This document shows, piece after piece, positions 583 to 32,038 of a DNA stretch of 32,038 nucleotides; within the stretch, counting starts at the first letter, position 1; each line of letters starts with the position of its first letter. The position numbers and the translations under genes are program-made. The notes beneath the pieces were generated by a model. That model did not search any database. It was not told the DNA's origin and saw nothing but the letters and a program-made list of their open reading frames with translations. Source of the DNA: a virus (taxonomy: Duplodnaviria; Heunggongvirae; Uroviricota; Caudoviricetes); the IMG/VR virus record IMGVR_UViG_2778261509_000010, positions 1 through 32,038 of that record, one strand, 5' to 3'.

Positions 583-1596
583 TTACTCTACTGTGGACAC
601 TGTGTGGACACTCTCGGCCTCAGTACCACCTCTTAGCGGATTAAGAGAAATGGCGTCCTGAAGGTACTCTGGCGCAAAATGAGCGTAAACCATAGTTTGT
701 TCAATCCGCGTGTGACCTAGTATCCGTTGTAGCGTGATAATACTTCCTCCATTAATCATGAAATGAGTGGCAAAGCTGTGCCTTAGTGCATGTGTGGCTT
801 GCCCCATTGGCAAATCCGGTTTTATTGCTTTCATTGTTCGTCTGAAGCGAGGGTAATCAGCATCAGGGAATAAAAAACCTCGTTTGTTATCCGCGATCAT
901 TTTGGCAACAGCCTCTGAGATCGGGACGGTGCGTGGTTTGTTTGTTTTCGTTTTAACAAACGTGACGCGGTTATGGATGATATTTTCTGCTTTCAAACGA
1001 GCTGCTTCTCCCCAACGTGCTCCAGTACTCAGGCAAAGAATCGCAATCTTTTTATTGTCGCCGTCAAGAGCAGCAAGCAGTAAGGCAATTTCTTCCTGCG
1101 TGAGATAGCCTGTGTCTGGTTTTTCCTCCTTAAGCCTTTTTGTCCCTCTGATAGGGTGCTCACCAAAGAATAACTCCGCTTCAATCAGGGCTGTAAACAT
1201 GCCGCTAATACATGTTAAATCACGATTGATACTCGAAGGTTTAATACCCTGACTTCTTCGGGTGGCGCAGTACTGGCTGATAAGCGATTTCGTAATTTGA
1301 AATGCGCATGGGTCATTCGTTATTTTTGTGAAGATTTCAATTTTTCCAAGATTAGATTTCCCATGCTCTTCGTGTTTACCCTTTAAATCCCACCAGATCT
1401 GTGTCAGCTCCGACAGACGTCGCTTGTCTGTTGGTTTTGATAGCCATTCTTTATTGTGGTGGTTGTACAACGTGTATTTCTCGAAAGCGACAGCTTCGCT
1501 TTTCTTATCAAACTTCCTACGGATGCGTTTTCCATTACGTCCAGTAGGGCGGATGTCCACTTCATATCGACCATCATCGAGTTTTTTGATTGCCAT
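583..1596 (-). CDS. int: Tyrosine integrase (337 aa)
   Basis: ATG at 1596 with GGAGGG Shine-Dalgarno upstream; C-terminal HALRHSFATHF...LGH...TMVYAH catalytic motifs of tyrosine recombinases; adjacent to att core. Confidence 0.95.
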   Translation of the reverse strand: MAIKKLDDGRYEVDIRPTGRNGKRIRRKFDKKSEAVAFEKYTLYNHHNKEWLSKPTDKRRLSELTQIWWDLKGKHEEHGKSNLGKIEIFTKITNDPCAFQITKSLISQYCATRRSQGIKPSSINRDLTCISGMFTALIEAELFFGEHPIRGTKRLKEEKPDTGYLTQEEIALLLAALDGDNKKIAILCLSTGARWGEAARLKAENIIHNRVTFVKTKTNKPRTVPISEAVAKMIADNKRGFLFPDADYPRFRRTMKAIKPDLPMGQATHALRHSFATHFMINGGSIITLQRILGHTRIEQTMVYAHFAPEYLQDAISLNPLRGGTEAESVHTVSTVE

Positions 1597-1711
1597 CAGA
1601 AAACCCTCCGAGTGGTGTGTTTTTTGGCGACTACTAATCGCTTTTTTCGTGGTGGCTGAAATTTAGCCACCAATAGTAGGCACTTGTGATGAATATATTC
1701 ACGATGAATTC

Positions 1712-2011
1712 TTAACCAGTCTTTTGACCGGAGTGGGGCGACGTTGTTTCGTTTTGCCCAAAGTGTGCGAGAGCGGGCGCAATTTGCCCGGACTCAGGAG
1801 CGATCTGATTGGTCATGAACCATAAAGTGTATTTGGTGAATTGTGGGGTCTGCAGGATGTTCATCATGACATCTGTTGGAGGTGTTGAACGACCACTTTC
1901 ATAGTAACTCAGCGTGCCATACGGAACCCCTGTTAAATCAGCAAGTTGTTGTCTGCTCAAATACTCTGATTTTCGCATTAAGACTATCTTCTCGCTTATC
2001 GTGTTTGACAT
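1712..2011 (-). CDS. C: Immunity repressor C (99 aa)
   Basis: 99-aa HTH protein (QQLADLTGVPYGTLSYYESG) transcribed divergently from cox, upstream of int on the same strand. Confidence 0.9.
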   Translation of the reverse strand: MSNTISEKIVLMRKSEYLSRQQLADLTGVPYGTLSYYESGRSTPPTDVMMNILQTPQFTKYTLWFMTNQIAPESGQIAPALAHFGQNETTSPHSGQKTG

Positions 2012-2100
2012 GGTGTTTAGATCTCAATAGTATTTAGTTTAGATGTAGATTGTTCAGTGCTTGGATGTGTGCACTAAAAGGCATTATAAGGCATTAAACG
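2005..2100. promoter_or_regulatory. Pe/Pc lysis-lysogeny switch region with putative C operator direct repeats
   Basis: TTGACA (2005-2010), 17-nt spacer, TAGTAT (2028-2033) reading towards cox; GTTTAGAT direct repeats at 2015-2022 and 2037-2044 flank the -10; perfect TATAAT on the minus strand (complement of 2083-2088) as a candidate Pc -10. Confidence 0.5.
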
Positions 2101-2125
2101 CAATTCATGAGGGCTGGAGGACGAC

Positions 2126-2401
2126 ATGAGCAAGCAAGTAACACTCATGACTGATGCGATTCCTTATCAGGAGTTCGCAAAACTAATAGGAAAATCGACA
2201 GGAGCGGTTCGTCGGATGATCGATAAAGGAAAGCTGCCTGTAATTGATATGACCGATCCACAATCAGCTTCAGGTCGTGCAGGTGAATATTGGGTATACC
2301 TTCCGGCATGGAATAACGGACTAAAACTGGCTTATGAAAGCCGCCCTAAAGAGATTCGTGACGGCTGGTTGATGTGGTTAGGTCTCGGTGAACCACGTTA
2401 A
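2126..2401 (+). CDS. cox: Cox excisionase / transcriptional regulator (91 aa)
   Basis: First gene of the rightward early operon, GGAGG Shine-Dalgarno 6 nt upstream, size and position as for P2 Cox. Confidence 0.9.
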   Translation: MSKQVTLMTDAIPYQEFAKLIGKSTGAVRRMIDKGKLPVIDMTDPQSASGRAGEYWVYLPAWNNGLKLAYESRPKEIRDGWLMWLGLGEPR

Positions 2402-2411
2402 GGAGAACCGT

Positions 2412-2582
2412 ATGAATGAACCTCGTTGTATTGCTCAGTTACTGCGTAACGAAAGCCCCAGGGCGATTGACTTCACCATCACCCACGGTAAGGGGCGTAA
2501 GGGAATCATTATCCGCACCAAAAAACAGAGTCCGTTAAAAAAGGCTCTGACCTTTCTGAAAAGCCGGAGGGTATGGAAATGA
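2412..2582 (+). CDS. Small early protein (P2 orf78-like position)
   Basis: ATG at 2412 preceded by AGGAGA; position between cox and B. Confidence 0.5.
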   Translation: MNEPRCIAQLLRNESPRAIDFTITHGKGRKGIIIRTKKQSPLKKALTFLKSRRVWK

Positions 2583-3079
2583 CAGTGATGACGCTCAATC
2601 TCGTTGAAAAACAGCCAGCAACTATGCGCCGGATAATTGGTAAGCATCTGGCCGTCCCTCGCTGGCAGGAGACATGCGATTATTATAATCAGATGATGGA
2701 ACGCGAACGGCTAACGGTTTGCTTTCATGCGCAGTTAAAACAGCGTCACGCAACGATGCGTTTTGAAGAAATGAACGACGTCGAACGTGAACGACTGGTT
2801 TGTGCAATTGATGAATTGCGTGGGGCATTCTCAAAACGCCGTCAGGTTGGCGCAAGTGAGTATGCATATATTAGTTTTTTAACAGTCAGTCAGCGCCGTA
2901 CTTTATTTATGCACGCACGACTGACAGAAAAAGAATTTAACCAGCCATACTGGCGAATTAATGAGGAATCATGTTACTGGCGTGATGCTTTATTCCGTGC
3001 ATTACGTGAATTATTCAGTCTGTTTGAGTATGCACCGACAATTCTGACATCGGTAAAACCAGAGCAATATCTGCATTAA
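2579..3079 (+). CDS. B: Replication protein B (helicase-loader-like, 166 aa)
   Basis: Position between cox and A; ATG at 2579 is better spaced from GGAGG (2566-2570) than the ATG at 2573. Confidence 0.8.
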   Translation: MTVMTLNLVEKQPATMRRIIGKHLAVPRWQETCDYYNQMMERERLTVCFHAQLKQRHATMRFEEMNDVERERLVCAIDELRGAFSKRRQVGASEYAYISFLTVSQRRTLFMHARLTEKEFNQPYWRINEESCYWRDALFRALRELFSLFEYAPTILTSVKPEQYLH

Positions 3080-3893: not shown

Positions 3894-4165
3894 GTATTCG
3901 TATTGAAATTGGCGAACGTTATGTCGTTACCAGTGACAGCTTTCAGTTTATTCTCCACGAGAAAAAGAGAGCGGAAAGCGGTAAAAACGCCGGTCAGGAA
4001 TGGCTGGCAGTGGTTGGTTATTACCCGAAATTAAGCCAGCTCGTTTCCGGCCTGATGCATCACGATATTCTGACCGGAAGCGCAAAGTCTTTTGCTGATT
4101 TAAACGCGCAGGTTGAGCAACTCAGCAGGCGTTGTTCAGAGGCTTTTGGCTCATATGGCCGTTAA
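3890..4165 (+). CDS. Small early hypothetical protein (orf83-like position)
   Basis: ATG at 3890 with GGAGA Shine-Dalgarno; overlaps the start of A. Confidence 0.5.
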   Translation: MSIRIEIGERYVVTSDSFQFILHEKKRAESGKNAGQEWLAVVGYYPKLSQLVSGLMHHDILTGSAKSFADLNAQVEQLSRRCSEAFGSYGR

Positions 4166-6455
4166 AGCCTCCGGGCGTTTTGTCCCTCCGTCAGCATTTG
4201 TTGCAGGCACCGGTAAGGCGTTTACCGGTGCTTATGCATGGAACGCGCCACGCGAGGCTGTCGGGCGCGAAAGACCCCTTACACGTGACGAGATGCGTCA
4301 GGTGCAAGGTGTTTTATCCACGATTAACCGCCTGCCTTACTTTTTGCGCTCGCTGTTTACTTCACGCTATGACTACATCCGGCGCAATAAAAGCCCGGTG
4401 CACGGGTTTTATTTCCTCACATCCACTTTTCAGCGTCGTTTATGGCCGCGCATTGAGCGTGTGAATCAGCGCCATGAAATGAACACCGACGCGTCGTTGC
4501 TGTTTCTGGCAGAGCGTGACCACTATGCGCGCCTGCCGGGAATGAATGACAAGGAGCTGAAAAAGTTTGCCGCCCGTATTTCATCGCAGCTTTTCATGAT
4601 GTATGAGGAACTCAGCGATGCCTGGGTGGATGCGCATGGCGAAAAAGAATCGCTGTTTACGGATGAGGCGCAGGCTCACCTCTATGGTCATGTTGCTGGC
4701 GCTGCACGTGCTTTCAATATTTCCCCTCTCTACTGGAAAAAATACCGTAAAGGACAGATGACCACGAGGCAGGCATATTCTGCCATTGCCCGTCTGTTTA
4801 ACGATGAGTGGTGGACTCATCAGCTTAAAGGCCAGCGTATGCGCTGGCATGAGGCGTTACTGATTGCTGTCGGGGAGGTGAATAAAGACCGTTCTCCTTA
4901 TGCCAGTAAACATGCCATTCGTGATGTGCGTGCACGCCGCCAGGCAAATCTGGAATTTCTTAAATCGTGTGACCTTGAAAACAGGGAAACCGGCGAGCGC
5001 ATCGACCTTATCAGTAAGGTGATGGGCAGTATTTCTAATCCTGAAATTCGCCGGATGGAGCTGATGAACACCATTGCCGGTATTGAGCGTTACGCCGCCG
5101 CAGAGGGTGATGTGGGGATGTTTATCACGCTGACCACGCCGTCAAAGTATCACCCGACACGTCAGGTCGGAAAAGGCGAAAGTAAAACCGTCCAGCTTAA
5201 TCACGGCTGGAATGATGAGGCATTTAATCCAAAGGATGCGCAGCGTTATCTCTGCCGTATCTGGAGCCTGATGCGCACGGCATTCAAGGATAATGATTTA
5301 CAGGTCTACGGTTTGCGTGTCGTCGAGCCACACCACGACGGAACGCCGCACTGGCATATGATGCTTTTTTGTAATCCACGCCAGCGTAACCAGATTATCG
5401 AAATCATGCGTCGCTATGCGCTCAAAGAGGATGGCGACGAAAGAGGAGCCGCGCGAAACCGTTTTCAGGCGAAACACCTTAACCGGGGCGGTGCTGCGGG
5501 GTATATCGCGAAATACATCTCAAAAAATATCGACGGATATGCACTGGATGGTCAGCTCGATAATGATACCGGCAGACCGCTGAAAGACACTGCCGCGGCT
5601 GTTACCGCATGGGCGTCAACGTGGCGCATCCCGCAATTTAAAACGGTTGGTCTGCCGACAATGGGGGCTTACCGTGAACTACGCAAATTGCCTCGCGGCG
5701 TCAGCATTGCTGATGAGTTTGACGAGCGCGTCGAGGCTGCACGCGCCGCCGCAGACAGTGGTGATTTTGCGTTGTATATCAGCGCGCAGGGTGGGGCAAA
5801 TGTCCCGCGCGATTGTCAGACTGTCAGGGTCGCCCGTAGCCCGTCGGATGACGTTAACGAGTATGAGGAAGAAGTCGAGAGAGTGGTCGGCATTTACGCG
5901 CCGCATCTCGGCGCGCGTCATATTCATATCACCAGAACGACGGACTGGCGCATTGTGCCGAAAGTTCCGGTCGTTGAGCCTTTGACTTTAAAAAGCGGCA
6001 TCGCCGCGCCTCGGAGTCCTGTCAATAACTGTGGAAAGCTCACCGATGGTGATACTTCGTTACCGGCTCCCACACCTTCTGAACACGCCGCAGCAGTGCT
6101 TAATCTGGTTGATGACGGTGTTATCGAATGGAGTGACCCGGAGGTTGTGAGGGCGCTCAGAGGTGCATTAAAATGCGGACTGAGAACACCAAATCGTCAG
6201 CAAAGAAACGGAAGTCCGTTAAAACCGCATGAAATAGCGCCATCAGCCAGGCTGACCAGGTCGGAACGATTGCAAATTACCCGTATTCGCGTTGATCTTG
6301 CTCAGAACGGTATCAGACCTCAGCGATGGGAGCTTGAGTCGCTGGCGCGTGGGGCAACCGTAAATTATGACGGGAAAAAATTCACGTATCCGGTCGCTGA
6401 TGAGTGGCCGGGATATTCAACTATAACAGAGTGGAATCAATTTGATGACGGGTAA
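4155..6455 (+). CDS. A: Rolling-circle replication initiator A (HUH endonuclease)
   Basis: HUH-like motif PHWHMMLF and paired tyrosines in AGYIAKYISKNIDGY; ATG at 4155 preferred (the ORF-track start at 4113 is a TTG). Confidence 0.9.
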   Translation: MAVKASGRFVPPSAFVAGTGKAFTGAYAWNAPREAVGRERPLTRDEMRQVQGVLSTINRLPYFLRSLFTSRYDYIRRNKSPVHGFYFLTSTFQRRLWPRIERVNQRHEMNTDASLLFLAERDHYARLPGMNDKELKKFAARISSQLFMMYEELSDAWVDAHGEKESLFTDEAQAHLYGHVAGAARAFNISPLYWKKYRKGQMTTRQAYSAIARLFNDEWWTHQLKGQRMRWHEALLIAVGEVNKDRSPYASKHAIRDVRARRQANLEFLKSCDLENRETGERIDLISKVMGSISNPEIRRMELMNTIAGIERYAAAEGDVGMFITLTTPSKYHPTRQVGKGESKTVQLNHGWNDEAFNPKDAQRYLCRIWSLMRTAFKDNDLQVYGLRVVEPHHDGTPHWHMMLFCNPRQRNQIIEIMRRYALKEDGDERGAARNRFQAKHLNRGGAAGYIAKYISKNIDGYALDGQLDNDTGRPLKDTAAAVTAWASTWRIPQFKTVGLPTMGAYRELRKLPRGVSIADEFDERVEAARAAADSGDFALYISAQGGANVPRDCQTVRVARSPSDDVNEYEEEVERVVGIYAPHLGARHIHITRTTDWRIVPKVPVVEPLTLKSGIAAPRSPVNNCGKLTDGDTSLPAPTPSEHAAAVLNLVDDGVIEWSDPEVVRALRGALKCGLRTPNRQQRNGSPLKPHEIAPSARLTRSERLQITRIRVDLAQNGIRPQRWELESLARGATVNYDGKKFTYPVADEWPGYSTITEWNQFDDG

Positions 6456-6713: not shown

Positions 6714-6872
6714 GCCGATTTCCTGTGATTGGTTTTCGTTATGCACTCTTTTCTGAAGAGATTAACTACTGATAGACTCAGGTTGGATGTCAGAATCGCT
6801 ATAGATTTCTTGCTATATATGTATTTTTCAATGAAAATGATCTCTGATTTAAACTGTAGTAAGGTGATTGGT

Positions 6873-7361
6873 ATGGATGGTTTATGGGAAAAAATATCGT
6901 CATATAATATATTTAATAATCTTTTTCCAGGTGCTCTTTTTATTTATCTTCTTGAGAGAATGACGAAGATCGTTTTATCTGGCGATGATTTAATAAAAAA
7001 TGTTGTCCTCTATTATTTTGTTGGCTTAGTCATTGGCCGGATTGGTTCTATCGTATTGGAACCTTTTTTAAAACTATCGCGTTTGATTAAGTTTGCTCCT
7101 TATAAAGATTATGTGTCAGCATGTGGTGTGGATGGAAAAATTGAAACTTTGCAAGAGATTGCGAATATGTATAGGACGATATTTTCAATGTCAATTATTC
7201 TTTTGGCGACATTGTGCGTTGTAGGACGGTTTACTGGCGAGACATATGGCTTATCTAAAATAACGTTGGCGGTTTTTGCTATTTTGTTTGTTGTCTCATA
7301 TATTAAACAAATAAGATACATAATATATAGAGTAAATGCTGTTAATAATAAGCTGCCGTAA
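6873..7361 (+). CDS. Multi-pass inner-membrane protein, cargo gene (about 4 TM segments)
   Basis: ATG at 6873 with AAGGTG Shine-Dalgarno 6 nt upstream; ORF is open from a TTG at 6729 (ATG at 6741 also possible). Hydrophobic segments FPGALFIYLL, VVLYYFVGLVIGRIGSIVL, IFSMSIILLATLCVVG, ITLAVFAILFVVSYI; strongly AT-rich. Confidence 0.6.
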   Translation: MDGLWEKISSYNIFNNLFPGALFIYLLERMTKIVLSGDDLIKNVVLYYFVGLVIGRIGSIVLEPFLKLSRLIKFAPYKDYVSACGVDGKIETLQEIANMYRTIFSMSIILLATLCVVGRFTGETYGLSKITLAVFAILFVVSYIKQIRYIIYRVNAVNNKLP

Positions 7362-7371
7362 GGCAGCTTTT
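7351..7371. terminator. Bidirectional intrinsic terminator between convergent cargo genes
   Basis: Hairpin AGCTGCC-GTAA-GGCAGCT overlapping the plus-gene stop, followed by TTTT on plus and an AT-rich tract on minus. Confidence 0.5.
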
Positions 7372-7374
7372 GAA

Positions 7375-8466
7375 TTATTCTTCGGTTCTATAGTTACTAA
7401 TGTATGATCGTGGAGTGGCTGTTTTCCATCCTGCCCTTTCAGGAGCATTATAAAAATGGTACTTACCAAGCCCCTCGGTGGCGATAACTTTCGCTCCTCG
7501 TCGAGTAAAGGCATTAATTACAGCTTGATGGGGATGTTTATCTGAACCTGGGGCACATGATACAAATGCGGTTATCTCCCTTTTTTCGCCTTCATTTACA
7601 ATGTTACCAACAAGTTTATCGAGAACATCAGGGCCTACATTTCTCCGGCTACCATGATGAGGTACTTGAATGAATCTTAATGATTCTTTATTAATGTATT
7701 GGGAGGCTTGATCTAAGGCTGTTATACCAGCATCGCCAGTGAACACTAACGTTCTTCCATCAATCTCAAGTTTCAAAATGACACTTGAGTTATTTTGTGC
7801 CGAGGTGGTATCGTCATTATCAATACCTTCATCAGTAAACCATTCAGCAACGTAATCAATAAATTTCTTCGTTTTTTCAACTACAGACTCAAAGACTGCT
7901 TTTAGTACTTCAAATCCAGCTGTATCCTCAGCTTTTTTGGGCATTCTTGCGAAATCAGGTATTAGAGTCTCATAGTAAGATTGGGTTGGCCCGATAACAA
8001 CCAGAGTAGCATTATCCCAGGTCATTCCTTGAAAAGGCTCTTTTATTTCAATTCCTTTTTTTTCCGCTAATTTGACAGCGTCATAAGCTTTTTGTAAGTT
8101 TTCTTTCATTCGATTTGCAATACTGGCATCAGTTATCCTGCCATCTGCAAACTCACTTGCGAGACCTTGATTATGTTCCCAAGGCTTATGAATCCAAAAC
8201 TCTTTTACTTCTGCATTTTCTAGAACAGATGTAAGTCCACCGACGTGGTCACCATCGGGGTGTGTGGAGATAAGCAAGTCAATAGTTTTTGTGCGGTAGT
8301 ATTTTTCAATATGCTCAATGACTTGTTCTCCGGTGCTGGCATATCCTGCATCAATAACGACAACTTTTTGTTCATCTCTTGAACCATGTAGGTTTCCCCA
8401 TCTGATGCAGATCGCATCGCCGCTTTTTTTTTCGCCAACAGCTAGAAAATCAATTTCGTAACCCAT
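7375..8466 (-). CDS. ComEC-like metallo-beta-lactamase-fold hydrolase (putative nuclease), cargo gene (363 aa)
   Basis: MBL motifs STHPDGDHVGG (residues ~67-77), VPHHGS and KHPH, resembling the ComEC C-terminal / Lactamase_B_2 pattern; ATG at 8466 with AAGGA Shine-Dalgarno; AT-rich. Confidence 0.8.
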   Translation of the reverse strand: MGYEIDFLAVGEKKSGDAICIRWGNLHGSRDEQKVVVIDAGYASTGEQVIEHIEKYYRTKTIDLLISTHPDGDHVGGLTSVLENAEVKEFWIHKPWEHNQGLASEFADGRITDASIANRMKENLQKAYDAVKLAEKKGIEIKEPFQGMTWDNATLVVIGPTQSYYETLIPDFARMPKKAEDTAGFEVLKAVFESVVEKTKKFIDYVAEWFTDEGIDNDDTTSAQNNSSVILKLEIDGRTLVFTGDAGITALDQASQYINKESLRFIQVPHHGSRRNVGPDVLDKLVGNIVNEGEKREITAFVSCAPGSDKHPHQAVINAFTRRGAKVIATEGLGKYHFYNAPERAGWKTATPRSYISNYRTEE

Positions 8467-8628
8467 TCCATATCCTTATTAAACTGTGAATTAACATGAA
8501 TCCAAGATGTTAAATCATATGGATAATAACGCAACTTTTCCGCAGTAAATACTGTGAGCGGATTTAATCTCGTCAGAACTAAAAGCAAGTAGTGTGACGA
8601 GGGACAATGAGTCTCTTTGGGGCGTTGG

Positions 8629-9168
8629 CTATGACACTGACGCAACCAGATTAACGCCGTGAGTCAGCAGATTTGTAATCACACCGGCAATGACCCCAGG
8701 AGTCCCATCTTTCACCGCACTGATCACTTTATCCCCCATCGTTTCATTTCCACCAAGCACCTCGGGTTTTTTGTTAAGAACTGTGAGCGCTTTTTCAGTA
8801 AGTCGAACATCGTAAAAATACGACTGATGGTCTGTGTTGTACTGAATGTACCCGTTTTCACAGAGAAAATTGAATGTACCTTCAACCACACTACGCAACT
8901 GATTTAACACTTTCATTTCTGGTGAGTTAAGTTGGTCAAAGTAGTCATCAGGTAGCGCGGCGTTAAATTTGTCGTAGTTAATCACCTGTGGTACGGGAAA
9001 ATTTTCCCATAGTACTGCAAAGATTTCCGCCGTTTGTTGGTTAAATAAATCGAGATTTTTCGACATGCAAAATTCCATTTCTTTTGATAATGAGTGGGTT
9101 AAACGCTGGACGAGGCAGATTACCACTCTGGCACAAAACAATGATCTTAGTTCACGCGAAGTTGACAT
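8629..9168 (-). CDS. Hypothetical cargo protein with Gly-rich hydrophobic C-terminus (start uncertain, 145-179 aa)
   Basis: ORF open from ATG at 9168; alternative ATG at 9066 (MSKNLDLF...). C-terminal GTPGVIAGVITNLLTHGVNLVASVS looks like a membrane-interacting tail. No family recognised. Confidence 0.55.
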   Translation of the reverse strand: MSTSRELRSLFCARVVICLVQRLTHSLSKEMEFCMSKNLDLFNQQTAEIFAVLWENFPVPQVINYDKFNAALPDDYFDQLNSPEMKVLNQLRSVVEGTFNFLCENGYIQYNTDHQSYFYDVRLTEKALTVLNKKPEVLGGNETMGDKVISAVKDGTPGVIAGVITNLLTHGVNLVASVS

Positions 9169-9259
9169 ATATACCGATAAGCTGGTTGCGCAGGCAACTA
9201 GCGTAGAACTCGCTCAGGTCATCAAGATGCTATTGAATTATATTCGAATGCACAAATAA
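9065..9259 (+). CDS. Possible small protein (64 aa), divergent from and overlapping the minus-strand cargo ORF
   Basis: ATG-initiated ORF; a plus-strand intrinsic terminator lies downstream at 9399-9425; no obvious Shine-Dalgarno. Conflicts with the 5' extension of the 8629-9168 ORF. Confidence 0.25.
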   Translation: MQNSISFDNEWVKRWTRQITTLAQNNDLSSREVDIYTDKLVAQATSVELAQVIKMLLNYIRMHK

Positions 9260-9398
9260 AATGATCTGTATCAATCTGTTAGGTGTCGTTTGTAAAAATG
9301 TGTGGACACGATTGTTCTGCTAATTGTTGTCAACATGTGCGTCAACAGTGAGATTGGTGCATTGCGCGGCCAGTGACAACTTTAAAAATTGGCCAAAA

Positions 9399-9425
9399 CC
9401 GGCACTATGAATGCCGTTTTTTTTG
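9399..9425 (+). terminator. Intrinsic terminator (plus strand)
   Basis: Stem CGGCA / TGCCG with 7-nt loop followed by T8 (9417-9424). Confidence 0.5.
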
Positions 9426-9582
9426 TGTTTTTTTCTGCGATACTCCTATTTTTAGCAGTGCATGCAATATGTGCGTGGTTTTGCATGTGCCTAAGTTGCA
9501 TGTTCTGGCTGTGCACCGTCAGGACGGACGCCCCTCAAAAGTGGTAATGCACCTGCATTAAAACCGACCTATGAAGCGGGCG

Positions 9583-9601
9583 GGCGAGGCGGGGAAAGCA
9601 C
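9583..9601. other. cos: cos-like cohesive-end sequence (GGCGAGGCGGGGAAAGCAC)
   Basis: 19-mer identical to the P2 cohesive-end sequence as I recall it; correct position between the cargo region and Q. Confidence 0.6.
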
Positions 9602-9743
9602 TGCGCGCTGGCGGTGGTGCTGATTTTATTTTTTCAGCGTCTCAGCGCGTCGTGACGGCGCTTAGTCTACCCGTTGTGGTGTTGGTGTGTCTGCGGGGTG
9701 TTTTGTGCGGTGGTGAGCGTGTGAGGGCGTGATGACGGGATGT

Positions 9744-9766
9744 AAAAAAGCCGCCCGCAGGCGGCG
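9744..9766 (-). terminator. Intrinsic terminator after Q (minus strand)
   Basis: GCCGCC-TGCG-GGCGGC hairpin followed by a T-run on the minus strand, immediately downstream of the Q stop. Confidence 0.6.
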
Positions 9767-9770
9767 ATGT

Positions 9771-10805
9771 TCAGCCGTTGTCAGTGTCCAGTGAGTAGTT
9801 TTTAAAGCGGATGACATCCTGACCGAGCCAGCCGTTTATTTCCCGAATCCTGTCCTGTAACGGGATAAGCTCATTGCGGACAAAGACCTTTGCCACTTTC
9901 TCAATATCTCCCAGCGACCCGACATTCTCCGGCTTGCCGCCCATCAACTGAAAGGGGATGCGGTGCGCGTCCAGCAGGTCAGCGGCGCTGGCTTTTTTGA
10001 TATTAAAAAAATCGTCTTTCGTCGCCACTTCACTGAGCGGGATAATTTTAATGCCGTCGGCTTTTCCCTGCGGGGCGTAGAGAAACAGATTTTTAAAGTT
10101 GTTGCGGCCTTTCGACTTAACCATGTTTTCGCGAAGCATTTCGATATCGTTGCGATCCTGCACGGCATCGGTGACGTACATGATGTATCCGGCATGTGCG
10201 CCGTTTTCGTAATACTTGCGGCGGAACAGCGTGGCCGATTCATTCAGCCAGGCAGAGTTAAGGGCGCTGAGATATTCCGGCAGGCCGTACAGCTCCTGAT
10301 TAATATCCGGCTCCAGCAGGTGAAACACGGAACCGGGCGCGAAGGCTGTCGGCTCGTTGAAGGACGGCACCCACCAGTAAACATCCTCTTCCACACCACG
10401 GCGGGTATATTTTGCCGGTGAGGTTTCCAGTCTGATGACTTTACCGGTAGTGCTGTAACGCTTTTCCAGAAACGCATTACCGAACACCAGAAAATCCAGC
10501 ACAAAGCGGCTGAAATCCTGCTGGGAAAGCCACGGATGCGGGATAAATGTCGAGGCCAGAATATTACGTTTGACGTAAATCGGTGAGCTGTGATGCACGG
10601 CAGCACGCAGGCTTTTTGCCAGACCGGTAAAGCTGACCGGTGGCTCATACCATCTGCCGTTACTGATGCACTCGACGTAATCCAGAATGTCACGGCGGTC
10701 GAGTACCGGCACCGGCTCACCAAAGGTGAATGCCTCCATTTTCGGGGCGCTGGCGGTCATTGTTTTTGCCGCAGGTTGCGGTGTTTTCCCTTTTTTCTTG
10801 CTCAT
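9771..10805 (-). CDS. Q: Portal protein (344 aa)
   Basis: Position and size; start overlaps the P stop (ATGA). Confidence 0.9.
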   Translation of the reverse strand: MSKKKGKTPQPAAKTMTASAPKMEAFTFGEPVPVLDRRDILDYVECISNGRWYEPPVSFTGLAKSLRAAVHHSSPIYVKRNILASTFIPHPWLSQQDFSRFVLDFLVFGNAFLEKRYSTTGKVIRLETSPAKYTRRGVEEDVYWWVPSFNEPTAFAPGSVFHLLEPDINQELYGLPEYLSALNSAWLNESATLFRRKYYENGAHAGYIMYVTDAVQDRNDIEMLRENMVKSKGRNNFKNLFLYAPQGKADGIKIIPLSEVATKDDFFNIKKASAADLLDAHRIPFQLMGGKPENVGSLGDIEKVAKVFVRNELIPLQDRIREINGWLGQDVIRFKNYSLDTDNG

Positions 10806-12577
10806 CAGTAAAACTCCAGAATGGTGGATGTCAGCGGGGTGCTGATACCGGCGGTGAGTGGCTCATTTAACAGGGCGTGCATGGTCGCCCAGGCGAGGTC
10901 GGCGTGGCTGGCTTCCTCGCTGCGGCTGGCCTCATAGGTGGCACTGCGTCCGCTGCTGGTCATGGTCTTGCGGATAGCCATAAACGAGCTGGTGATGTCG
11001 GTGGCGCTGACGTCATATTCCAGACAGCCACGGCGGATAACGTCTTTTGCCTTGAGCACCATTGCGGTTTTCATTTCCGGCGTGTAGCGGATATCGCGCG
11101 CGGCGGGATAGAACGAGCGCACGAGCTGGAACACGCCGACACCGAGGCCGGTGGCATCAATACCGATGTATTCGACGTTATATTTTTCGGTGAGTTTGCG
11201 GATGGATTCAGCCTGAGTGGCAAAGTCCATGCCTTTCCACTGGTGACGCTCAAGTATTCTGAATTTGCCACCGGCCACCACCGGCGGTGCCAGCACCACG
11301 CATCCGGCGCTGTCGCCACGGTGTGACGGGTCGTAACCAATCCATACCGGGCGGGAACCGAACGGATTTGCGGCAAAGGGTGCATAGTCTTCCCATTCTT
11401 CCAGCGTGTCGACCATGCAGCGTTGCAGCTCCTCGAACGGGAACACCGACGCCTTGTCGTCAACAAATTCACACATGAACAGGTTTTTAAAATCGTCGGC
11501 GCTGTTTTCGCGTTTGAGCTGCTCAATGTCGAACAGCGTGCAGCCACCTTTCAGGGCGTCCTCAATGGTGACAATCTGCCGCCACTGGCCGTCCGCACAG
11601 AGAAGACCACCGGCAAGGGCGTTATGACTGACGTCGATTTCCACGCGTTCGGCGGCGCTGGCGCGTCCCCGGTTGAACAGTTCACCTGACCAGAACGGGT
11701 AGGCGTCGTGCGCCAGCGTGGACGGGGTGGAGAAATAGGTCGAGCGCAGGTGACTCTGTGAGGCCATACCTGATGCTACCTTACGCAGTACCTGAAAATT
11801 CGGAATCCAGAAAATCTCGTCGACGTACAGGTCGCCGTTATGGCTCTGTGCGGTGTTGGAGTTGGTGCCGAGAAAAATCAGTTTTGCACCGTTATTGCCC
11901 AGGACAATCGGGTCACCGGTCAGGTCAACGTCAACCAGCCGGGCAAAGGCAATGATGTATTCGCGGAACACATACGCCTGCGTTTTACTGGCCGACAGAA
12001 AAATCTGGTTATGGCCGGTTTTCAGGGCGCGCAGCAGCGCCTCGCGGGAAAAATAAAACGTCGCGCCAATCTGGCGGGATTTCAGGATATCGCGGATGCG
12101 GTGCTCAAGCCCGGCGCGATACCAGTGCAACTGATAGTCGAAAGACTGCTCAAAGAAAATCTGCTCCAGCTTTTCGATGGCCTCGTCACTGAAAAAATTC
12201 TTTTTCGGTTTGCGACGCCCGCCTTTGTTGCGGTTAGCGACGTTCGGATTAAGGTCTGCTTCGTTGCCGGTCTGGCTGTAGCGGTTTACCCGTGCCAGTC
12301 GTTCAATCTGGCGTCCGAGCAGGTCAATTTCCTTGAAGTCACCGCCGGTTTTCTGCGGTTTGATGATGAGCTGAGTCAGCCGCGCTTCCAGACTCATTTC
12401 GACACGGCTGATGGGGGCAACGCTGTCCCAGCCGTCGCGCTGTTTCCAGCTCTGCACCGTCGGGCGTTTCATCTGCAACATGGCGGCAATCTGCGGCACG
12501 GAAAACCCCTGCCAGTACAGCAGCGCCGCCTGACGACGCGGGTCGTGTAAAAGAGTGGTGTCTGTGGTGATGGTCAT
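10805..12577 (-). CDS. P: Terminase large (ATPase) subunit (590 aa)
   Basis: ATG at 12577 (MTITTDTTLL...) with GAGGT Shine-Dalgarno; the ORF-track start at 12607 adds 10 codons. Confidence 0.9.
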   Translation of the reverse strand: MTITTDTTLLHDPRRQAALLYWQGFSVPQIAAMLQMKRPTVQSWKQRDGWDSVAPISRVEMSLEARLTQLIIKPQKTGGDFKEIDLLGRQIERLARVNRYSQTGNEADLNPNVANRNKGGRRKPKKNFFSDEAIEKLEQIFFEQSFDYQLHWYRAGLEHRIRDILKSRQIGATFYFSREALLRALKTGHNQIFLSASKTQAYVFREYIIAFARLVDVDLTGDPIVLGNNGAKLIFLGTNSNTAQSHNGDLYVDEIFWIPNFQVLRKVASGMASQSHLRSTYFSTPSTLAHDAYPFWSGELFNRGRASAAERVEIDVSHNALAGGLLCADGQWRQIVTIEDALKGGCTLFDIEQLKRENSADDFKNLFMCEFVDDKASVFPFEELQRCMVDTLEEWEDYAPFAANPFGSRPVWIGYDPSHRGDSAGCVVLAPPVVAGGKFRILERHQWKGMDFATQAESIRKLTEKYNVEYIGIDATGLGVGVFQLVRSFYPAARDIRYTPEMKTAMVLKAKDVIRRGCLEYDVSATDITSSFMAIRKTMTSSGRSATYEASRSEEASHADLAWATMHALLNEPLTAGISTPLTSTILEFY

Positions 12578-12750
12578 GAATACCTCGCCGTGATGAATAC
12601 ACGGCAAGGCTACTGAGTCGCGCCCCGCGATTCGCTAAGGTGCTGTTGTGTCAGTGATAAGCCATCCGGGACTGATGGCGGAGGATGCGCATCGTCGGGA
12701 AACTGATGCCGACATGTGACTCCTCTAATCACTATTCAGGACTCCTGACA
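12578..12750. promoter_or_regulatory. Divergent late promoter region (P leftward, O rightward)
   Basis: Non-coding region between divergent late operons; no consensus element could be pinned down by eye. Confidence 0.4.
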
Positions 12751-30505: not shown

Positions 30506-30532
30506 AAAAAATAAGCCCGTGTAAGGGAGATT
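30506..30532. repeat. attR: att core, right copy (27 bp)
   Basis: Exact direct repeat of 477-503, downstream of the ogr terminator. Confidence 0.8.
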
Positions 30533-30676
30533 ACACAGGCTAAGGAGGTGGTTCCTGGTACAGCTAGCATTTTATGGGTTATGTTTTTCAGCGAAACGGA
30601 TGATAACCTTAATAAATGCAGCTGTATGTGATCGGTTTCTAAGAATTTTCCATCCGGGAAAAATAATCGAAATTAA

Positions 30677-32038
30677 TCACTTACCGTGGGGGTTACGCGT
30701 GGTTTCCCCGGAGAAATTACGCATCAGCAGCGCGTAATTTAGCTCAAGATCCTGCGGCACCGGGAGCCACACAGTATAACCATCGCCTGGTGCTACCGGC
30801 ATAGCTTCGCCTTTGGCGTTTTCCATGTGCTCAAGGGTAAAGTTAATGTTGCCTTGCGGCGTCATCAGCTCAAGGCTGTCGCCAACGGAGAATTTATTTT
30901 TCACCGCTACCGCCGCGAGGTCCCCCTTGCGCTCACCGGTAAACTCACCAACAAACTGCTGGCGGTCAGAAACCGAATAACCGTATTCGTAGTTCTGATA
31001 ATCGTCGTGAGTATGACGACGCAGGAAACCTTCGGTATAGCCACGATGCGCCAGACCTTCCAGAGTTTCCAGCAGGCTGGTATCGAACGGTTTGCCCGCA
31101 GCGGCATCATCGATAGCTTTACGATAAACCTGTGCGGTGCGTGCGCAATAGTAGAAAGATTTAGTACGGCCTTCGATCTTCAGCGAATGCACGCCCATTT
31201 TGGTCAGGCGTTCTACATGGGCGATGGCGCGCAGATCTTTCGAGTTCATGATGTAAGTGCCGTGCTCATCTTCAAACGCGGTCATATACTCGCCCGGACG
31301 CTGGGCCTCTTCGATCATAAACACTTTGTCGGTTGGTGCGCCGATACCCAGCGTCGGCTCAACATTTTGCACCGGAATCGGCTCGTACTTGTGTACGATG
31401 TTGCCAACATCATCTTCTTTCCCTTCCAGGACGTTGTACTCCCAGCGGCAGGCGTTGGTGCAGGTGCCCTGGTTCGGGTCGCGCTTGTTGATATAGCCAG
31501 AGAGCAGGCAGCGACCGGAGTAGGCCATGCACAGCGCGCCGTGAACGAAGATCTCGATCTCCATATCCGGCACCTGATTGCGGATCTCTTCAATCTCTTC
31601 CAGCGACAGCTCGCGAGAGAGGATCACGCGGGTCAGGCCCATTTGCTGCCAGAATTTCACCGTCGCCCAGTTCACGGCGTTAGCCTGCACCGAAAGGTGG
31701 ATCGGCATTTCAGGGAAGTGCTCACGCACCAGCATAATCAGCCCTGGATCGGACATAATCAGCGCATCCGGCCCCATTTCCACCACCGGTTTCAGGTCAC
31801 GGATAAAGGTTTTCAGCTTGGCGTTGTGCGGTGCAATGTTGACCACGACATAAAACTTTTTCCCCAGCGCGTGGGCTTCATTGATGCCGAGCTGAAGATT
31901 TTCGTGGTTGAATTCGTTGTTGCGCACACGCAGGGAATAACGCGGCTGGCCCGCATAAACAGCATCTGCGCCATAAGCGAAAGCGTAACGCATATTTTTC
32001 AGCGTTCCCGCCGGGGAAAGGAGTTCCGGTTTAAACAT
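30677..32038 (-). CDS. yegQ: U32-family peptidase (yegQ/trhP-like, 453 aa), flanking host gene
   Basis: Full-length 453-aa ORF on the minus strand with its ATG at the last three bases of the window; sequence pattern of U32 peptidases; lies outside the att repeat. In E. coli K-12 a cryptic P2 remnant (ogrK) sits beside yegQ, consistent with this being a P2 attachment locus (from memory). Confidence 0.7.
   Translation of the reverse strand: MFKPELLSPAGTLKNMRYAFAYGADAVYAGQPRYSLRVRNNEFNHENLQLGINEAHALGKKFYVVVNIAPHNAKLKTFIRDLKPVVEMGPDALIMSDPGLIMLVREHFPEMPIHLSVQANAVNWATVKFWQQMGLTRVILSRELSLEEIEEIRNQVPDMEIEIFVHGALCMAYSGRCLLSGYINKRDPNQGTCTNACRWEYNVLEGKEDDVGNIVHKYEPIPVQNVEPTLGIGAPTDKVFMIEEAQRPGEYMTAFEDEHGTYIMNSKDLRAIAHVERLTKMGVHSLKIEGRTKSFYYCARTAQVYRKAIDDAAAGKPFDTSLLETLEGLAHRGYTEGFLRRHTHDDYQNYEYGYSVSDRQQFVGEFTGERKGDLAAVAVKNKFSVGDSLELMTPQGNINFTLEHMENAKGEAMPVAPGDGYTVWLPVPQDLELNYALLMRNFSGETTRNPHGK

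Follow-up and report, generated by a model that had tools for sequence, protein, structure and literature searches.

Where two reading frames of a phage genome start at the same position and run in opposite directions, which of them are genes, and what does the terminator behind the smaller one close? The question is raised by positions 8629–9425 of the window, by which we mean the whole 32,038-nt stretch analyzed here (IMG/VR record IMGVR_UViG_2778261509_000010), which we assign to a P2-like (Peduoviridae) prophage. A long open reading frame (ORF) on the minus strand has two possible start codons, a 64-codon ORF begins at the same place on the plus strand, and a hairpin with a run of T follows the small ORF. 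The first-pass annotation of this DNA took the minus-strand frame for a third cargo gene beside an MBL gene, and saw in the hairpin the end of a plus-strand transcript, belonging either to a real small gene or to a small RNA or antisense regulator. Our analysis favors (probability about 0.8) an accessory module of two genes that is conserved among P2-like phages. It is made up of a winged-helix protein gene and a small protein gene in head-to-head orientation and is situated at the cos-proximal edge of the hotspot between gpA and gpQ.

We compared the pair across 53 related loci with usable coordinates, taken from three annotated phages, six bacterial genomes and 44 of 46 IMG/VR viral contigs. 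Selection was assessed as the Nei-Gojobori dN/dS ratio in each reading frame. The coordinates of all features are collected in Table 1.

Start codon and protein family of the large gene

Read from its first ATG at 9168, the minus-strand ORF encodes 179 aa; an internal ATG at 9066 gives a protein of 145 aa. The first-pass annotation left the 5' end ambiguous between these two codons. Both are indeed present, but the relatives and the family profile decide for 9066. In 53 of 53 related loci the large gene starts at the ATG aligned with 9066, with products of 141–148 aa, and the phrog_2266 profile (144 positions) matches residues 1–142 of the 145-aa form (E = 1e-58). Since the ATGs of the relatives align at this position and the profile is aligned from residue 1, we conclude that 9066 is the start and 9168 a lineage-specific artefact. 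The in-frame ATG 34 codons upstream is restricted to the window and four contigs of ~99% identity (L010–L013); outside this group the upstream frame is stopped after 4–34 codons or contains no ATG. The apparent dN/dS of 0.29 in the extension frame arises because its wobble positions coincide with the real plus-strand frame. A start at 9168 or at 9078, with the large gene overlapping the small ORF over 100 nt, could appeal to the open frame of the window and to one GenBank record giving a 179-aa product. We find it hardly credible: the upstream ATG is missing or the frame closed in nearly all relatives, the family profile begins at the methionine of 9066, and an exhaustive profile search returned 735 cluster representatives, all of them stand-alone proteins of ~125–170 aa that align end to end from residue 1–4.

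The common motif of these 735 members is N-terminal and reads NI(E/D)xFN..TA.IFA.LYE.FPVP. The 145-aa protein has the features by which phrog_2266 is recognized, namely a stand-alone length of ~125–170 aa, the N-terminal NI(E/D)xF motif and a winged-helix core, and 40 of 40 diverse relatives sampled fall in the same family. Likeness to MarR exists at the level of the fold only: no Pfam MarR match was obtained at E ≤ 1, the PDB profile match is weak (E = 0.035), and the protein differs from MarR-type regulators by the N-terminal motif NIExFN..TA.IFA.LYE.FPVP and a C-terminal helical hairpin. A BFVD structure search with the large protein gave nothing significant. The GenBank note of phage Midge mentions a similarity to T7 gp5.5/5.7 (H-NS binding), which was not reproduced by profile comparison.

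Coding potential of the small ORF

All 64 positions of the 64-aa protein are matched by the phrog_2454 profile (E = 3e-35). The ORF is kept at 63–64 codons in 51 of the 53 related loci, with protein identity falling as low as 44%; the two exceptions are L048, where the stop codon is lost and the product is lengthened to 86 aa, and L009, in which the ORF is absent. The terminator region of L048 is degenerate as well, and the same degeneracy is found in L045. Homologs of the small gene form 25 clusters, nearly all of exactly 64 aa. The dN/dS ratio is 0.19 in the ORF's own frame and 1.1–1.7 in the off frames, except for the wobble-sharing antisense frame (0.29). Variability is highest at third codon positions (0.31) compared to first (0.13) and second (0.10) positions, replacements are conservative, and the motif DLSSRE is invariant. 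With a dN/dS of 0.095 for the large gene, the ratios demonstrate purifying selection on both genes, and we conclude from these patterns that the 64-aa ORF is a real protein gene. This bears out the first of the two options of the first-pass annotation. The comparison of reading frames in homologs that it proposed, in which the idea was to fail if the minus-strand frame alone were conserved, finds the plus frame under purifying selection too.

An AF2 model of the 64-aa protein predicts a three-helix bundle (pLDDT 73), and a fold search retrieved generic helical bundles only. The gene is annotated as a coding sequence (CDS) in phages Midge, ST147-VIM1phi7.1 and FSL SP-004; the NCBI PGAP annotation omits it in the RefSeq E. 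coli record examined.

That omission would agree with another explanation, in which the ORF is untranslated and owes its conservation to constraint on the DNA as promoter, operator or 5' untranslated region (UTR) of the large gene, while the terminator closes a non-coding or antisense RNA. The region must hold the ribosome-binding site of the large gene and probably its promoter, and in the window the small ORF has a weak Shine-Dalgarno sequence. We nevertheless regard this explanation as very improbable. It is opposed by the codon-periodic substitutions with a low ratio in the ORF's own frame only, by the constant length at low identity, by the conservative replacements around an invariant DLSSRE, and by the fact that neither an Rfam match nor a conserved RNA structure was found. 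The ORF is also intact in SW9, although the large gene is destroyed there.

Overlapping start codons and the 5' ends of the transcripts

The small ORF starts where the first-pass annotation had placed it, with its start codon and that of the large gene overlapping by 2 nt in a CATG. The overlap together with a plus-strand ORF of 63–64 codons is present in 51 of 53 related loci, a recurrence far beyond what we would expect by chance. The Shine-Dalgarno region of each gene lies inside the first codons of its partner; the GGA/GGGA element of the large gene is the complement of the conserved Asn-Ser codons of the small protein. Synonymous diversity is lowered near both starts, over the initial ~16 codons in the large gene and the initial 8 in the small one (0.55–0.62 bits vs ~1.0–1.1 elsewhere). 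The genes are not separated by any intergenic DNA, and each contains the ribosome-binding site of the other; from this geometry it follows that their mRNAs must overlap in the 5' parts. Promoters would therefore face each other, placed inside the partner gene or beyond it; alternatively, plus-strand transcription arriving from upstream would read the small gene.

A weak promoter-like sequence on the plus strand, TAGTCA-16-TAAATT with the -10 element ending at 8969, is present in 28 of 41 loci. Beside it synonymous diversity passes through a pronounced minimum at 8910–8955 (codons 37–50 of the large gene), with 0.24–0.42 bits vs ~1.1 toward the 3' end. This dip may mark an embedded promoter of the small gene or a recombination footprint. 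Inverted and direct repeats sought as operators gave short matches only, which are probably due to chance.

Face-to-face promoter switches of the P2 family are Pe/Pc of P2 (C, Cox) and pR/pL of 186 (CI, Apl). The CATG pair resembles them in belonging to the same phage family and in having divergent genes whose transcripts would overlap at the 5' ends, an arrangement that lends itself to mutual transcriptional interference. It differs in that the start codons themselves overlap, which is more extreme, that the promoters are hypothetical, and that neither the 145-aa nor the 64-aa protein is related to C, Cox, CI or Apl. The prophage's own immunity region is located elsewhere, near 583–3079.

The terminator and the 3' region of the plus-strand unit

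Behind the small gene the usual order is the block GGATCTnTATCAATaTGTTA, a spacer, the hairpin and then the GCATGC-rich cos-proximal region common to P2. The block is kept even in loci with different downstream sequence. The IHF-consensus pattern WATCAANNNNTTR within the block occurs once in 32 kb compared to 1.2 occurrences expected by chance, so only conservation of the site is informative; it could represent an IHF site or a part of the minus-strand gene's promoter, for which 9 loci show a TTAACA-18-TATTTT arrangement. The spacer is dispensable: a phrog_11386 gene replaces it in L006, L050 and L053, and it is missing in L008 and L052.

The hairpin of the window has a 5-bp stem (4 G-C pairs) and a 7-nt loop. 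In the relatives the terminator takes the form CCGGCA-loop-TGCCGG followed by 7–8 T, with stems of 6–9 bp and energies of up to -12.7 kcal/mol (z = -2.4). Compared to L010, which is ~99% identical, the window carries a G-to-T change at 9416 (GCCGT vs GCCGG) that shortens the stem and extends the T run from 7 to 8. Among 20 diverse loci the stem arms are nearly invariant and the loops variable. An invariant stem leaves no possibility for compensatory changes, and the pattern fits selection on the stem. In Rosenbergiella (L008, L052) the terminator follows ~25 nt after the stop codon of the small gene, and in L006, L050 and L053 the extra plus-strand phrog_11386 gene separates the small gene from this terminator. 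Since the terminator is kept after an inserted gene in some loci and directly after the small gene in others, the comparison indicates that it closes the plus-strand unit, which by this evidence ends just before cos. The earlier proposal that it marks a plus-strand transcription unit is thereby supported.

We found no support for the other option, a small RNA or antisense regulator. Searching Rfam with the entire window and with 8900–9800 gave no family in the region, the best match reaching 17 bits vs a gathering score of 80; weak matches to STnc470 and to miRNAs were dismissed as chance. RNAalifold of 9257–9432 across 20 loci predicted the terminator hairpin as the only robust structure, with no compensatory changes. 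A promoter-like TTGAAT-18-TAAAAT at 9233–9262 is not preserved in most relatives, which have TAAAAG as the -10 element. The interval between the small gene and cos contains no ORF conserved in strand, frame or length; a 33-aa CDS annotated there in the Klebsiella phage and a 90-aa minus-strand CDS in Midge were discarded for this reason.

A second terminator is located on the minus strand at 9750–9765, just after the portal gene (GCCGCC-TGCG-GGCGGC followed by 6 T; -14.4 kcal/mol, z = -3.0). It ends the P-Q operon on the opposite side of cos, and two terminators therefore bracket cos.

Related phages and distant members of the family

The closest pairs are CPTMidge_045/046 of Escherichia phage Midge, gp04/gp05 of Klebsiella phage ST147-VIM1phi7.1 and gp39/gp40 of Salmonella phage FSL SP-004, with identities to the window of 85–87% for the large and 53–72% for the small protein. 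They share the CATG geometry, the cos-adjacent site and the downstream terminator, but differ in their cargo, which consists of Fic, of a helix-turn-helix (HTH) gene plus polymerase, or of nothing, compared to MBL/PDC-M48 in the window. The pair was found in 78 of 2,156 complete E. coli genomes carrying the P2 cos region, and also in Salmonella, Klebsiella, Citrobacter, Enterobacter and others.

Distant members of phrog_2266 were sampled by single-protein scans and one DNA pattern scan. They show ~25–30% identity and are found in P2-like and Mu-like prophages at accessory sites different from that of the window. A CATG overlap with a divergent ORF of ~70–75 aa recurs in L056/L070/L100, L072, L075 and L098/L106; in Laribacter the overlap position reads ATA and an ATG is located 4 nt away. 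The small partners belong to phrog_25421 or to a type represented by L098, and neither these nor the phrog_11386 product show significant similarity to the 64-aa protein. The phrog_11386 gene (~69–77 aa; L006 4513–4791 (-), L050, L053; L068, which is SW9, 2658–2867) replaces the deleted winged-helix gene in SW9 and SI22. At four of the five distant head-to-head loci the small gene runs along the flanking operon and the winged-helix gene is opposed to it. The clade of the window follows the same orientation logic, the small gene being co-directional with gpA. Recurrent CATG pairing with unrelated small proteins suggests an antisense-coupled cassette.

The genes were already known as hypothetical proteins and PHROG families, as was the hotspot. 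The pairing of phrog_2266 genes with different small proteins by CATG appears undescribed in limited literature searches: queries for accessions, PHROG ids and PDC-M48 returned nothing in main texts, and the arrangement was met only in Table S5A of Rousset et al. (PMC9122126).

Neighboring cargo and independence of the module

The pair lies in the gpA–gpQ interval, a cos-proximal hotspot of accessory and defense genes described by Rousset et al. 2022 (PMC9122126). In P2 itself tin and old occupy this interval. Their Table S5A lists among the P2 hotspot loci the arrangement 'hypothetical + hypothetical + Lactamase_B' (WP_001752367 + WP_001752365 + WP_001752366), in which WP_001752367 is the 145-aa protein. 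The pair shares with tin, old and other gpA–gpQ cargo the slot from gpA to cos/gpQ and an accessory, non-essential character. Unlike the swappable cargo, it is semi-conserved at the cos edge, beside many different cargos.

Loci with any cargo can be aligned over the pair from 8624/8645 to ~9610. The PDC-M48 cargo aligns with L045 over 6873–8479, and the spacer at 8480–8644 is unshared. Since the homology breakpoints fall between them, the modules are separate, and this comparison establishes the pair as evolutionarily independent of the MBL/PDC-M48 cargo, a candidate defense system in PADLOC that has two genes and not three. The label of third cargo gene is therefore misleading, as the pair also stands beside many other cargos or none. 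Alternative cargos between gpA and the pair include Fic, a 519-aa reverse-transcriptase-like protein and other one- or two-gene sets, a plus-strand HTH gene with a 316-aa gene annotated as 'polymerase', or DinI-like small genes alone.

For component A of PDC-M48 the TTG ORF at 6729 is a mechanical call; homology to L045 also begins at the ATG at 6873, which is probably the real start. RefSeq calls the product of this region a 176-aa 'phosphohistidine phosphatase'. Only 13 nt, without a terminator, separate the ends of the convergent component A and MBL genes, whose transcripts probably overlap in their 3' parts. The gap between the 145-aa gene and the MBL gene measures 162 nt (8467–8628), one less than the 163 bp first reported, from which separate promoters had been suggested; these are a possibility. 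In 10 relatives a GC-rich hairpin element of ~75 bp (…TTTCAGTGCYGRCGGGGTTGAACAACGAGC) follows directly 3' of the winged-helix gene, even in front of a same-strand Fic gene. Neither this element nor a canonical terminator is present in the gap of the window. In SW9 (L068) the element is duplicated and flanks the inserted phrog_11386 gene. This duplication suggests that it mediates the gain and loss of cassettes.

The position in a defense hotspot also raises the possibility that the pair itself is a two-component defense, exclusion or toxin-antidote-like system, in which the small fast-evolving protein antagonizes the winged-helix protein. The pair lies in a validated defense hotspot (PMC9122126), the winged-helix gene stands head-to-head with at least three unrelated types of small protein, and between two small-protein types of the pair the small protein retains 59% identity vs 84% for the large, hence evolves faster. 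We consider such a system unlikely. PADLOC gave no match for the 145-aa or the 64-aa protein and none for 40 diverse phrog_2266 members (0/40), each gene occurs without the other, and no enzymatic or toxic domain was detected. The divergent orientation is unlike that of classical toxin-antitoxin pairs, which are operonic; for type II systems in particular, no toxin or antitoxin domain was found in Pfam, NCBIfam or PADLOC.

On the opposite side the module ends ~160 bp left of cos, which we identified by one exact match to the P2 cos sequence GGCGAGGCGGGGAAAGCAC. The linear genome of phage Midge terminates within sequence homologous to it, and similarity of the window to P2 begins at 9452. Repeats rich in GCATGC/TGCATG at 9455–9510, between terminator and cos, are also present in P2 and may be terminase recognition elements. 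At the right end of the prophage a full-length CyaR/RyeE small RNA gene (Rfam RF00112, 100.7 bits) is located at 30509–30594 (-) and adjoins a 453-aa host ORF (30677–32038); cyaR appears to flank the integration site of the prophage.

Table 1. Coordinates of the module, its surroundings and related features; positions refer to the window unless a locus is named
Feature	Position	Strand	Remarks
145-aa winged-helix protein gene (phrog_2266 family)	8629..9066	-	true start ATG 9066
Spurious 34-codon N-terminal extension	9067..9168	-	non-coding on minus strand
64-aa three-helix protein gene (phrog_2454 family)	9065..9259	+	conserved ORF, profile match
CATG, two start codons overlapping by 2 nt	9064..9067	.	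same geometry in all loci of the clade
Conserved non-coding block GGATCTnTATCAATaTGTTA	9260..9284	+	directly after small-gene stop; contains GATC
IHF-consensus match WATCAANNNNTTR	9269-9281	+	only exact match in window; within block 9260-9284, adjoining GATC
Non-coding spacer, ~110 nt	9285..9399	+	moderately conserved; probable 3' UTR of small-gene mRNA
Rho-independent terminator	9400..9424	+	stem 9400-9404/9412-9416, T8 at 9417-9424
P2-type cos sequence GGCGAGGCGGGGAAAGCAC	9583-9601	+	one exact match in window
Replication gene A (gpA)	4113-6455	+	
PDC-M48 component A	6729/6873-7361	+	PADLOC E = 2e-50, match from residue 49 (= 6873); phrog_11864
MBL gene, PDC-M48 component B	7375-8466	-	PADLOC E = 7e-101
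Portal gene Q	9771-10805	-	capsid/tail genes beyond P
Terminase gene P	10805-12607	-	capsid and tail genes come after P
GC-rich hairpin element copies	L068 2489-2518, 2894-2923; L001 2950-2979		8 further loci
Distant phrog_2266 sites			tail tube-chaperone genes (P. aeruginosa); sheath-fibre genes, Z/fun position (Laribacter); Mu early region
Distant phrog_2266 sites in tail genes			tape-measure gene-gpU; gpU-gpX; gpX-gpD

Possible regulation of the pair

A module of this shape would most likely be a prophage accessory (moron) cassette. Convergent promoters may lie in or beyond each other's coding sequence, or transcription of the early (gpA) operon, which has the direction of the small gene, may continue through the antisense winged-helix gene and so express the small gene. 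In either case the expression of one gene would run antisense over the other, and the terminator would keep rightward transcription away from cos and from antisense entry into the leftward portal/terminase operon. Tentatively, the winged-helix protein could be a lysogen-expressed, probably DNA-binding factor, its gene being silenced by rightward lytic transcription that also yields the small protein; this is a conjecture drawn from the arrangement, and we hold it to be rather doubtful. Equally speculative is its extension to the family, in which a phrog_2266 gene and its small head-to-head partner form a portable 'antisense-locked' cassette that acts as a lysogeny/lysis toggle. The winged-helix gene would be set against the lytic operon and the fast-evolving small gene would run along it. 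A lysogen would produce the winged-helix factor alone; during the lytic sweep, collision or antisense RNA would silence its gene and the small protein, possibly an antagonist, would be produced.

Compatible with the two-gene module, though short of even odds, is a plainer explanation of the terminator as the end of a long rightward read-through of early or cargo genes, insulating cos and the leftward late operon. The small gene would then be a promoterless last cistron, and this explanation would differ from the favored one only in the site of the transcription start. At every locus the small gene points the same way as gpA, and in SW9 it forms part of a co-directional array. Phages without cargo have a hairpin between the large gene and the DinI-like gene that lacks a T run on the plus strand, and the strong terminator at 9750–9765 mirrors the one behind the small gene across cos. 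In the window, however, the path from gpA crosses the convergent MBL and large genes, ~1.7 kb in antisense, and the constraint at codons 37–50 of the large gene, next to the weak promoter-like site with the -10 end at 8969, hints at an internal promoter.

Several observations weigh against a regulated two-gene module with opposing transcripts. No confident promoter was found on either strand: the best candidates match 8–9 of 12 consensus positions, no better than in shuffled sequences, and consensus scans of the window, Midge and 41 loci gave nothing convincing. The first-pass annotation described the plus-strand terminator at 9399–9425 as clean. A hairpin with eight T is present at 9400–9424, but with its 5-bp stem it is weak, reaching a minimum free energy of -8.1 kcal/mol in a 46-nt stretch with z = -0.43 vs shuffles. 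Ten terminator-like motifs were found in this stretch vs 4.6 ± 2.5 expected, and because the pattern is weak and such motifs are common, the reality of this terminator rests on its conservation. Many family members are partnerless and run with tail operons. In SW9 and SI22 the small gene is kept and the large gene is cut to 18 codons. Since each gene thus occurs alone, the coupling is recurrent yet not obligatory. We found no evidence of an interaction of the two proteins, and, apart from one linked site, no residue of the large protein covaries with the two types of small protein. Finally, DNA binding by the winged-helix domain is a prediction, and the fold also mediates protein contacts.

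Implications for P2-like prophages

For the annotation of such loci the results place the start of the large gene at 9066, add a real 64-aa gene on the opposite strand that PGAP omits in the RefSeq record examined, and assign the terminator to this small gene. Toward cos, the pair forms a conserved border of the P2 defense hotspot, and its CATG head-to-head arrangement leaves no space for conventional promoters. If the pair is indeed a transcription-interference switch that controls a winged-helix factor expressed in lysogens, it could explain how genes of the hotspot are on in lysogens and off during the phage's own lytic growth. If the toggle also holds for the distant pairs, it would provide a prophage-expressed exclusion or regulatory factor with such a control in defense hotspots and in moron sites among tail genes, across Enterobacterales, Pseudomonas and Laribacter.

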